64,000 nt of DNA from the NCBI GenBank assembly GCA_045636945.1, contig JAZTYO010000023.1, forward strand, positions 14,485-78,484, read 5' to 3'. A report on this DNA, generated by a model with database tools, continues below. Source of the DNA: Acutalibacteraceae bacterium. GTDB lineage: Bacteria > Bacillota > Clostridia > Oscillospirales > Acutalibacteraceae. The DNA itself is not shown here.

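Follow-up and report, generated by a model that had tools for sequence, protein, structure and literature searches.

The open reading frame list, together with Pfam and NCBIfam scans, bore out the gene map of the preliminary description, except that the ten co-oriented genes claimed there amount to nine on the + strand. The ORF list and a hairpin scan also confirmed that the junctions are tight within two blocks, with a hairpin at 34895 between them. In block 1, from the oxidase to the KduI/IolB cupin, successive genes are separated by 25 and 23 nt and then overlap by 1 and 11 nt. In block 2, from the mutarotase to the electron-transferring flavoprotein (ETF), they abut, are 15 nt apart and overlap by 4 nt, and the 88 nt between the blocks is the sole larger gap among the operon junctions. 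The operon is flanked by housekeeping genes, and the only ABC system nearby is of the ABC-2 exporter type. Since no sugar transporter adjoining the operon was seen in the window, the locus can be called transporter-less, as previously described; this does not extend to related loci, where an AEC-family carrier lies within or beside the operon (at least 12 loci) or EamA carriers abut it (at least 5 loci). An Rfam scan of the locus returned no riboswitch and no other RNA family.

Coordinates of the regulator, the nine-gene operon and its hairpins in the window
Feature	Coordinates	Strand	Evidence
RpiR/SIS regulator	28752-29603	-	ORF list + Pfam, NCBIfam scans
FAD_binding_4/FAD-oxidase_C protein (oxidase), 476 aa	29776-31206	+	ORF list + Pfam, NCBIfam scans
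Fer4_8 protein (Fe-S protein)	31232-32323	+	ORF list + Pfam, NCBIfam scans
Class II aldolase	32347-33189	+	ORF list + Pfam, NCBIfam scans
PfkB kinase	33189-34100	+	ORF list + Pfam, NCBIfam scans
KduI/IolB cupin	34090-34881	+	ORF list + Pfam, NCBIfam scans
Hairpin, 10-bp stem, inside the 88-nt gap between blocks	34895-34920		
Aldose 1-epimerase (mutarotase)	34970-35827	+	ORF list + Pfam, NCBIfam scans
DUF4867 protein	35828-36478	+	ORF list + Pfam, NCBIfam scans
FGGY kinase	36494-37969	+	ORF list + Pfam, NCBIfam scans
ETF, EtfB-like and EtfA-like halves in a single 458-aa chain	37966-39342	+	ORF list + Pfam, NCBIfam scans
Terminator-like hairpin, end of operon	39358-39386		

More than 5000 homologues of the oxidase are detectable, the best 120 of which are all 78-91% identical to it. 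A relative was found in at least 562 genomes in a scan with one genome per species, and metagenomic proteins matching the oxidase number in the thousands. The best 80 oxidase loci belong to MAGs from human, ruminant and poultry guts, carried by Acutalibacteraceae, Oscillospiraceae, Lachnospiraceae, Christensenellaceae, Ca. Scatosoma and others. When all window proteins were searched by tblastn, seven core genes (AGPS-like oxidase, Fe-S protein, class II aldolase, PfkB, IolB-like cupin, FGGY kinase and fused ETF) were all present in 50 of the 53 oxidase-anchored loci with enough sequence. At least three gene orders occur, namely oxidase-FeS-aldolase-PfkB-IolB-(mutarotase)-(DUF4867)-FGGY-ETF, oxidase-FeS-IolB-FGGY-ETF-aldolase-PfkB and oxidase-FeS-aldolase-PfkB-FGGY-ETF-IolB, and the pairs oxidase-FeS, aldolase-PfkB and FGGY-ETF are retained in almost all of them. 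Of the 22 sufficiently long loci from an independent metagenome scan anchored on PfkB, 21 contain the oxidase, and two ETF homologues of 61-62% identity were located in the same cluster. These surveys show that the seven core genes form one unit; the coupling of redox and sugar genes that had been proposed thus stands as co-conservation with the oxidase, PfkB and ETF as anchors and in several gene orders. Literature searches brought up no description of the cluster, and it is rated as a carbohydrate catabolic operon of known families in an undescribed combination.

Around this core, the mutarotase, the DUF4867 protein and an SftI-like isomerase are optional. The isomerase (467 aa), absent from the window, is distant from the sulfoquinovose isomerase SftI (115 bits for a cutoff of 700). 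DUF4867 corresponds to the SqvB/SftX family, of solved structure and unknown function, and the neighbourhood study of this family is silent on the present cluster context (PMC11968277). Amino-sugar add-ons were found in 15-20 loci, where NagA exceeds its equivalog cutoff and is inserted in the operon at varying positions. Likewise inserted there are a divergent NagB/AgaI-like gene, an N-acylglucosamine 2-epimerase, a doubled MurQ/GKRP-like SIS gene or a PMI-like gene. This variability is illustrated by one MAG with two copies of the cluster (loci L032 and L012), one with the isomerase and the other with NagA and the epimerase. GH20 and GH2 genes lie near the amino-sugar-type loci; in several loci, the GH2 neighbour lacks, by eye, the N-x-K motif of glucuronidases, so its reading as a beta-glucuronidase was rejected and it gives no support for a uronate substrate.

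The sugar enzymes of the window belong to familiar families. The closest PDB structures of the aldolase are AgaY (the best) and KbaY, an FBA and YdjI. It exceeds the cutoff of the subfamily model TIGR00167 (243 bits, cutoff 216) and stays under the equivalog cutoffs of GatY (251 vs 383), tag_bisphos_ald (237 vs 444) and fruc_bis_ald (245 vs 343). The nearest solved structure of PfkB is the sulfofructose kinase YihV, whose sulfonate-recognition triad is K27-R138-N109 (PMC8006165). In the window kinase K27 is retained, R138 is replaced by N and N109 by F, and its score against IolC (TIGR04382, IolC-N) is 86.6 bits for a cutoff of 300. Two proteins pass an equivalog model at the borderline, the cupin for IolB (TIGR04378, 214.1 bits, cutoff 205) and the FGGY kinase for XylB (TIGR01312, 394.7 bits, cutoff 380.25), the latter scoring 224 against PRK15027 (cutoff 912). 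In a third of the loci, a second IolB-like type (34-42% identity) stands in for that of the window.

The oxidase combines a PCMH-type FAD-binding domain (PF01565, 115 bits) with a FAD-oxidase_C cap (PF02913, 70 bits). Its best PDB matches are alkyl-DHAP synthases (2uuu, 4bby; ~133 bits); D-lactate dehydrogenases, LctD and glycolate oxidase rank behind them. The catalytic positions of AGPS were taken from the point-mutant PDB entries 4bc7 and 4bca. In the alignment, Arg419 corresponds to R263 (SVMRLYD) and Tyr578 to Y392 (GCMMYDRF), and two of the three histidines of the His615-617 'HHH' loop are retained as D-H434-H435-GVG; ten family members of 38-82% identity show no variation at these sites. 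The Glu-His motif 'GEHG(I/V)G' of metal-dependent D-2-hydroxyacid dehydrogenases (GlcD, D-LDH, LctD, D2HGDH) is absent from the oxidase, in which 'NDHHGVG' aligns with 'SAEHGIG' of the GlcD-family oxidoreductase 3pm9. Besides, its score against the glcD model TIGR00387 is 185 bits for a cutoff of 568. The alignments show that the putative catalytic residues are of AGPS type rather than of 2-hydroxyacid-dehydrogenase type. The N-terminal domain of AGPS (about 130-200 residues) is missing, the AGPS alignment beginning at residue 132 (Dictyostelium) or 206 (mammal) and at residues 49-53 of the oxidase. No lipid genes lie near the oxidase, whose neighbours are carbohydrate and electron-transfer genes. 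AGPS itself catalyzes a redox-neutral reaction on DHAP, in which a fatty alcohol takes the place of an acyl group. The oxidase occurs in a carbohydrate-catabolic context with obligatory electron carriers, and this context, with its Fe-S and ETF partners, suggests that electrons are transferred on balance, instead of an AGPS-type redox-neutral exchange.

The oxidase is also the most conserved protein of the cluster. Among 58 complete loci (1653 pairs), its median identity is 87% (minimum 80%) vs 51-64% for the medians of the other six core proteins, and in the most divergent locus pairs it is still 85% identical vs 38-54% for the others, a difference partly due to the ranking of these loci by oxidase similarity. 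The same pattern was observed in PfkB-anchored loci, with oxidase identities of 77-89% where those of PfkB are 44-78%. Horizontal transfer of the whole cluster is no explanation, since the neighbours are less conserved. A constraint of this kind points to demanding chemistry or to numerous contacts between proteins.

The Fe-S protein contains two N-terminal ferredoxin-type cysteine motifs (2x[4Fe-4S]) and gives weak NCBIfam matches to GlpC, GlcF, LdhH, TfrB and DsrK. Two canonical CCG motifs (CXnCCGXmCXXC) are retained in its distant homologues from the related loci L090 and L091, and alignment with these revealed no cysteines at the CCG positions in the window protein and its close relatives. 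These comparisons show a derivation of the Fe-S partner from GlpC/GlcF-type proteins. As for the ETF, its best PDB matches are subunits of bifurcating complexes, i.e., CarDE, the C. difficile Etf, the Thermotoga Etf (7koe), Acidaminococcus EtfAB and LctBC, which outscored classical ETFs. Its 'IDGDTAQTG' stretch aligns with 'TDGDTAQVG' of LctB, a DGDTAQVG-like motif of the EtfB-type beta-FAD/NADH site that we take to be a mark of bifurcation, and domain II (the alpha-FAD site) aligns in full to CarE, Etf and LctC. Bifurcating (group 2) ETFs are heterodimers of full-length subunits with two FAD and an activity dependent on NADH and ferredoxin. The single chain of the window is shortened, with ~20 residues of the EtfB N-terminal hairpin gone and EtfA domain I reduced to about half size. 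As far as its sequence can tell, the window ETF is shown to resemble bifurcating ETFs. Its best 120 homologues are fused chains of 456-492 aa, save one 402-aa partial.

A search of 50%-identity representatives revealed a gap under the tight oxidase clade (next identities 54%, 48%, 42%, 40% and so on), and many of the distant relatives are chains of 700-1000 aa, about twice the length of the oxidase. The locus of the 54% oxidase comprises LacI, FGGY, oxidase, Fe-S, MFS sugar porter, IolB-like, PfkB, FucI-like and aldolase genes. On its contig, which also has a Fibrobacter-type paralogous-domain gene, this locus is bordered by GH27, a sulfatase and pectate-lyase-fold proteins. A 42% oxidase accompanies FGGY, Fe-S, an ABC sugar transporter, Gfo/Idh/MocA enzymes, SIS, PfkB and a MIPS-like protein, and a second one, on a 7-kb contig, a CCG protein, a Fer4-CCG protein and two FGGY kinases. 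The 40% oxidase is found with FGGY, a CCG protein, a 2-hydroxyacid dehydrogenase (2-Hacid_dh), an ABC transporter and a 3-hydroxyacyl-CoA/G3P dehydrogenase-type NAD-binding protein. None of these loci contains an ETF, as judged on its contig for the second 42% oxidase, and ETF was seen in Clostridia-type clusters alone. R263, Y392, H434 and H435 are retained in all distant-variant oxidases. Given these retained residues and the persistence of the three genes, the FGGY kinase, the AGPS-like flavoprotein and the Fe-S/CCG protein are an old functional unit, kinase, flavoprotein and Fe-S genes co-occurring far outside the present cluster. An intermediate variant (loci L164 and L171, 61-64% oxidase identity) has separate EtfB and EtfA, and its genes form two groups, isomerase-aldolase-PfkB-DUF4867 and oxidase-FeS-Etf-IolB. 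In L164, a true lctD-etfBA-larA operon adjoins the variant cluster and is distinct from it; with this separate operon and an oxidase devoid of the 2-hydroxyacid motif, the cluster was rejected as a lactate/Etf (Lct) operon.

Among known systems, the cluster is akin to GlpK with GlpABC and to EryA with EryB, in which a flavoprotein dehydrogenase oxidises the polyol that an FGGY kinase has phosphorylated. As in GlpK/GlpABC, the kinase, flavoprotein and Fe-S genes travel jointly, and the ancestral form of the cluster Fe-S subunit falls in the family of GlpC, a 2x[4Fe-4S] and CCG protein. However, the cluster subunit has lost the CCG cysteines, and GlpA and GlpD belong to the DAO family whereas the cluster flavoprotein is a member of the PCMH/VAO-fold GlcD/AGPS family. 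Furthermore, GlpABC uses a quinone acceptor instead of a dedicated ETF. The FGGY kinase is far from GlpK (175 bits, cutoff 590), and a glycerol kinase plus G3P dehydrogenase pair was discarded on this basis. In LctBCD of Acetobacterium woodii (PDB 7qh2), too, a GlcD-family flavoprotein is associated with an EtfB/EtfA of bifurcating type and an Fe-S module of ferredoxin type, and LctB, LctC and LctD are all among the best PDB matches. By analogy, this likeness offers a plausible mechanism for the oxidation of a ~-200 mV donor without quinones. Unlike in LctBCD, AGPS-type residues take the place of the Glu-His motif of D-2-hydroxyacid dehydrogenases, a separate GlcF/GlpC-derived protein carries the Fe-S clusters instead of the EtfA N-terminal domain, and EtfB and EtfA are fused and shortened. 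AGPS (2uuu, 4bby) is the closest solved relative of the oxidase, with the same FAD-binding and cap domains and with equivalents of R419, Y578 and two HHH-loop histidines in the oxidase, but the latter is devoid of the N-terminal domain and lies in a carbohydrate-catabolic context with electron carriers and no lipid genes nearby.

The lower part of the cluster has counterparts elsewhere. Three enzyme families are adjacent in it as in IolB-IolC-IolJ and in YdjH-YdjI, the kinase and aldolase for keto-uronates of E. coli: a KduI/IolB cupin, a PfkB acting on a CH2OH beside a keto group and a DHAP-releasing class II FBA-type aldolase. In contrast to iol, iolG, iolE, iolD and iolA are absent and PfkB is far under the IolC cutoff; no ThDP enzyme was found in the scanned window flanks or in the neighbourhoods of related loci. 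The FGGY kinase and the flavoprotein/Fe-S/ETF module are obligatory extras with respect to both iol and Ydj. Like the tagatose-6-phosphate/GalNAc routes (Aga, Gat, Lac), the cluster has a PfkB-type 1-kinase, a LacX-type epimerase and a ketose-bisphosphate aldolase of class II, with AgaY as its best PDB match; NagA and NagB/AgaI-like genes, present in related loci, are a further common feature. Nevertheless, the cluster has no PTS, LacAB or AgaS, its kinase and aldolase are under the equivalog cutoffs, and these routes have no counterpart to the obligatory redox module. Finally, sulfo-EMP2 (SqvD/SftI, SqvB, SqiK, SqiA) has an SftI-related FucI-like isomerase, DUF4867, a class II aldolase and a mutarotase in common with the clusters, and sulfo-EMP provides YihV as the nearest structure of PfkB. 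Sulfoglycolysis, hinted at by these likenesses, was rejected: the sulfonate-binding triad is not kept, and sulfoquinovosidase, exporter and sulfolactaldehyde (SLA) reductase are absent, with no GH31 enzyme or TauE-type exporter among the annotated flanking genes of the loci. A further difference is that SqiK is of PfkA type and the cluster kinase of PfkB type. By analogy, the cluster would work like GlpK/GlpABC joined to an IolBCJ- or tagatose-type lower module, with an LctBCD-like electron output. It is outside the GlpK/GlpABC, iol, tagatose, Lct, AGPS and sulfoglycolysis systems, since in each case a defining feature is lacking, be it the CCG cysteines, the 2-hydroxyacid motif, the AGPS N-terminal domain, the sulfonate triad or a score above the IolC, GatY or LacC cutoff.

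In the scheme that we prefer, the FGGY product would be the substrate of the flavoprotein, as in GlpK/GlpABC and EryA/EryB, and electrons would flow through the [4Fe-4S] clusters and the ETF to NAD+. Ferredoxin-assisted confurcation, as in LctBCD, would probably be needed because donors of this kind are near -200 mV. The IolB-like isomerase, PfkB and the aldolase would form an isomerise-phosphorylate-cleave triad with DHAP as end product. A hexitol would thus be converted to hexitol-6-P, aldose-6-P, ketose-6-P and ketose-1,6-bisphosphate, yielding DHAP and GAP. The ketose-6-P would be a hub reached by the isomerase branch via FGGY, and directly by the NagA/NagB-like, AGE, MurQ-like and PMI-like genes. 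This scheme is preferred because each optional gene set would be a side entry to the hub, because ketoses bearing an anionic group at C6 are the substrates of the enzymes that PfkB and the aldolase resemble, and because a neutral substrate would suit transporters of the EamA and MFS sugar-porter types. A more novel and more tentative reading is that the kinase, the AGPS-like flavoprotein and the Fe-S protein may constitute an unrecognised class of phospho-sugar dehydrogenase, acting on polyol-phosphates or phospho-sugar-acids. In gut and rumen Clostridia, it would be tied to a dedicated fused bifurcating-type ETF and lie at the centre of a widespread, so far overlooked fermentation route for a C6 compound from the diet or the host. 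If true, this would be the first flavin-based electron-confurcating/bifurcating complex on a carbohydrate intermediate. In a still bolder version, AGPS-like covalent flavin chemistry would take place on an X-CH2-CO-CH2-OP intermediate, X (O-sulfate, O-methyl, O-acyl) being removed from a 6-substituted hexose after aldol cleavage.

The main rival, somewhat less likely, is a C6 sugar-acid route of IolB/IolC/IolJ-like enzymes, or 'uronate/aldonate EMP'. A hexonate would be phosphorylated at C6 by FGGY, as by an FGGY-type gluconokinase, and AGPS-like oxidation beside the phosphate, as expected from AGPS and GlpD, would give a 5-keto-6-phospho-aldonate, the 2-hydroxy analogue of the IolJ substrate. 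Its cleavage by the aldolase would yield DHAP and tartronate semialdehyde, the latter being converted to hydroxypyruvate by the IolB-like enzyme and to 3-phosphohydroxypyruvate by PfkB. Hexuronates would be handled first by the SftI-like isomerase, DUF4867 and the mutarotase, then by PfkB. In a variant, the flavoprotein and ETF would be reductive, turning 3-phosphohydroxypyruvate into 3-phosphoglycerate in an NADH-driven reaction with ferredoxin bifurcation; it counts against the route that this reduction is already performed by the ubiquitous SerA. To our knowledge, both characterised KduI/IolB activities are on uronate-type aldehyde-acid substrates, and the window cupin is over the IolB equivalog cutoff. 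Keto-acid PfkB and class II aldolase pairs exist (IolC/IolJ, YdjH/YdjI), YdjI being among the top PDB matches, and the optional isomerase is distantly akin to SftI, whose substrate has an anionic tail. AEC transporters in at least 12 loci are also in favor of this route, as are the 40%-identity homologue beside 2-Hacid_dh and a 3-hydroxyacyl-CoA/glycerol-3-P dehydrogenase-type protein, and the 54% variant between pectate-lyase-fold proteins and a sulfatase. Besides, the split of the L171/L164 genes into two groups fits a 'cleave first, then process C3 acid' logic. However, neither an ExuT, GntP or TRAP-type uronate/aldonate transporter nor a lyase or unsaturated-glucuronyl hydrolase was seen, GH2 neighbours lack N-x-K by eye, and EamA and MFS Sugar_tr transporters indicate neutral sugars. 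Moreover, the FGGY kinase scores 395 bits for XylB but 261 bits for GntK, and the amino-sugar add-ons would be reduced to 'partner sugars' instead of pathway feeders.

An alditol-1-phosphate route seems unlikely. In it, FGGY would form an alditol-1-P, oxidised at C2 by the AGPS-like enzyme in a GlpD/EryB-like manner to a ketose-1-P, which the aldolase would cleave without a further step to DHAP and glyceraldehyde, which would be isomerised to dihydroxyacetone by the IolB-like enzyme and phosphorylated to DHAP by PfkB. Every core enzyme would be employed once, and the site of oxidation, beside the phosphate, would agree both with the AGPS-type residues and with the analogy to GlpK/GlpD. FGGY kinases phosphorylating the C1 of ketoses exist, i.e., FucK and RhaB. 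Nevertheless, PfkB and the aldolase are akin to enzymes for large substrates with anionic tails and not to triose kinases, triose activity is known for no KduI/IolB member, and the amino-sugar and PMI-like add-ons are left unexplained.

Pentose (xylose) use with a transaldolase-independent pentose phosphate bypass is still less likely. Xylulose-5-P would be made by the XylB-like kinase along with the SftI-like isomerase, the mutarotase and DUF4867, PfkB would be a sedoheptulose-7-P/fructose-6-P kinase, the aldolase an SBP/FBP aldolase, and the flavoprotein/ETF would serve a side reaction, e.g., pentitol-phosphate oxidation. This is in line with the FGGY kinase exceeding the XylB equivalog cutoff, with GH43, GH30, GH3, arabinofuranosidase and CE4 genes near some loci, and with the C. 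saccharobutylicum operon xylB-ROK-FSA-TKT-DUF4867-FucI-like, whose xylB is required for growth on xylose (PMC6158908). Yet the isomerase and DUF4867 are optional, the isomerase is missing from the window, no transketolase gene was found in any of the loci with annotated neighbours, and the obligatory oxidase, Fe-S protein, ETF and IolB-like cupin are unexplained.

A known pathway in disguise, either lower myo-inositol catabolism (IolB-IolC-IolJ, with upper genes elsewhere) or a sulfo-EMP2-like use of sulfoquinovose, is very improbable. The IolB match at equivalog level, IolG-like and IolE-like (AP_endonuc_2) genes adjoining a few loci, the SF kinase as nearest solved structure of PfkB and the DUF4867, mutarotase, class II aldolase and SftI-like isomerase of the sulfo-EMP2 toolkit (PMC9594981) point that way. 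However, classical inositol catabolism was rejected since IolB alone reaches its cutoff (87 bits vs 300 for IolC-N) and upper genes, including iolD and iolA, are absent. As to sulfoquinovose, the kinase keeps one residue out of three of the YihV sulfonate triad, the isomerase is far under the SftI cutoff, and GH31 sulfoquinovosidase, sulfonate exporter and SLA reductase were found in none of the annotated flanks; FGGY kinase and flavoprotein/ETF, both obligatory here, have a part in neither pathway. The chance adjacency of two unrelated operons, sugar and redox, is refuted by the surveys on three anchors and has next to no probability: the hairpin between the blocks would favor it, but its stems are kept, with a variable loop, in the three closest relatives of the window (L014-L016, Acutalibacteraceae MAGs) and nowhere else, it leaves the oxidase and Fe-S protein in block 1 and the ETF in block 2, thus not parting redox from sugar, and the seven genes stay together across several orders and bacterial families with any anchor.

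At present, the proteins of the cluster are annotated as 'FAD-binding oxidoreductase', 'alkyldihydroxyacetonephosphate synthase' or 'xylulokinase', with no pathway assigned. The operon is compact (a seven-gene core, nine genes in the window, one regulator), experimentally tractable and widespread. The identity of its substrate would close a gap in models of gut carbohydrate/polyol fermentation, assign a role to a large branch of bacterial AGPS-family proteins and help to account for DUF4867. The cluster may also be a new member of the short list of ETF-based bifurcating/confurcating systems, with a bearing on the NADH/ferredoxin/H2 balance.

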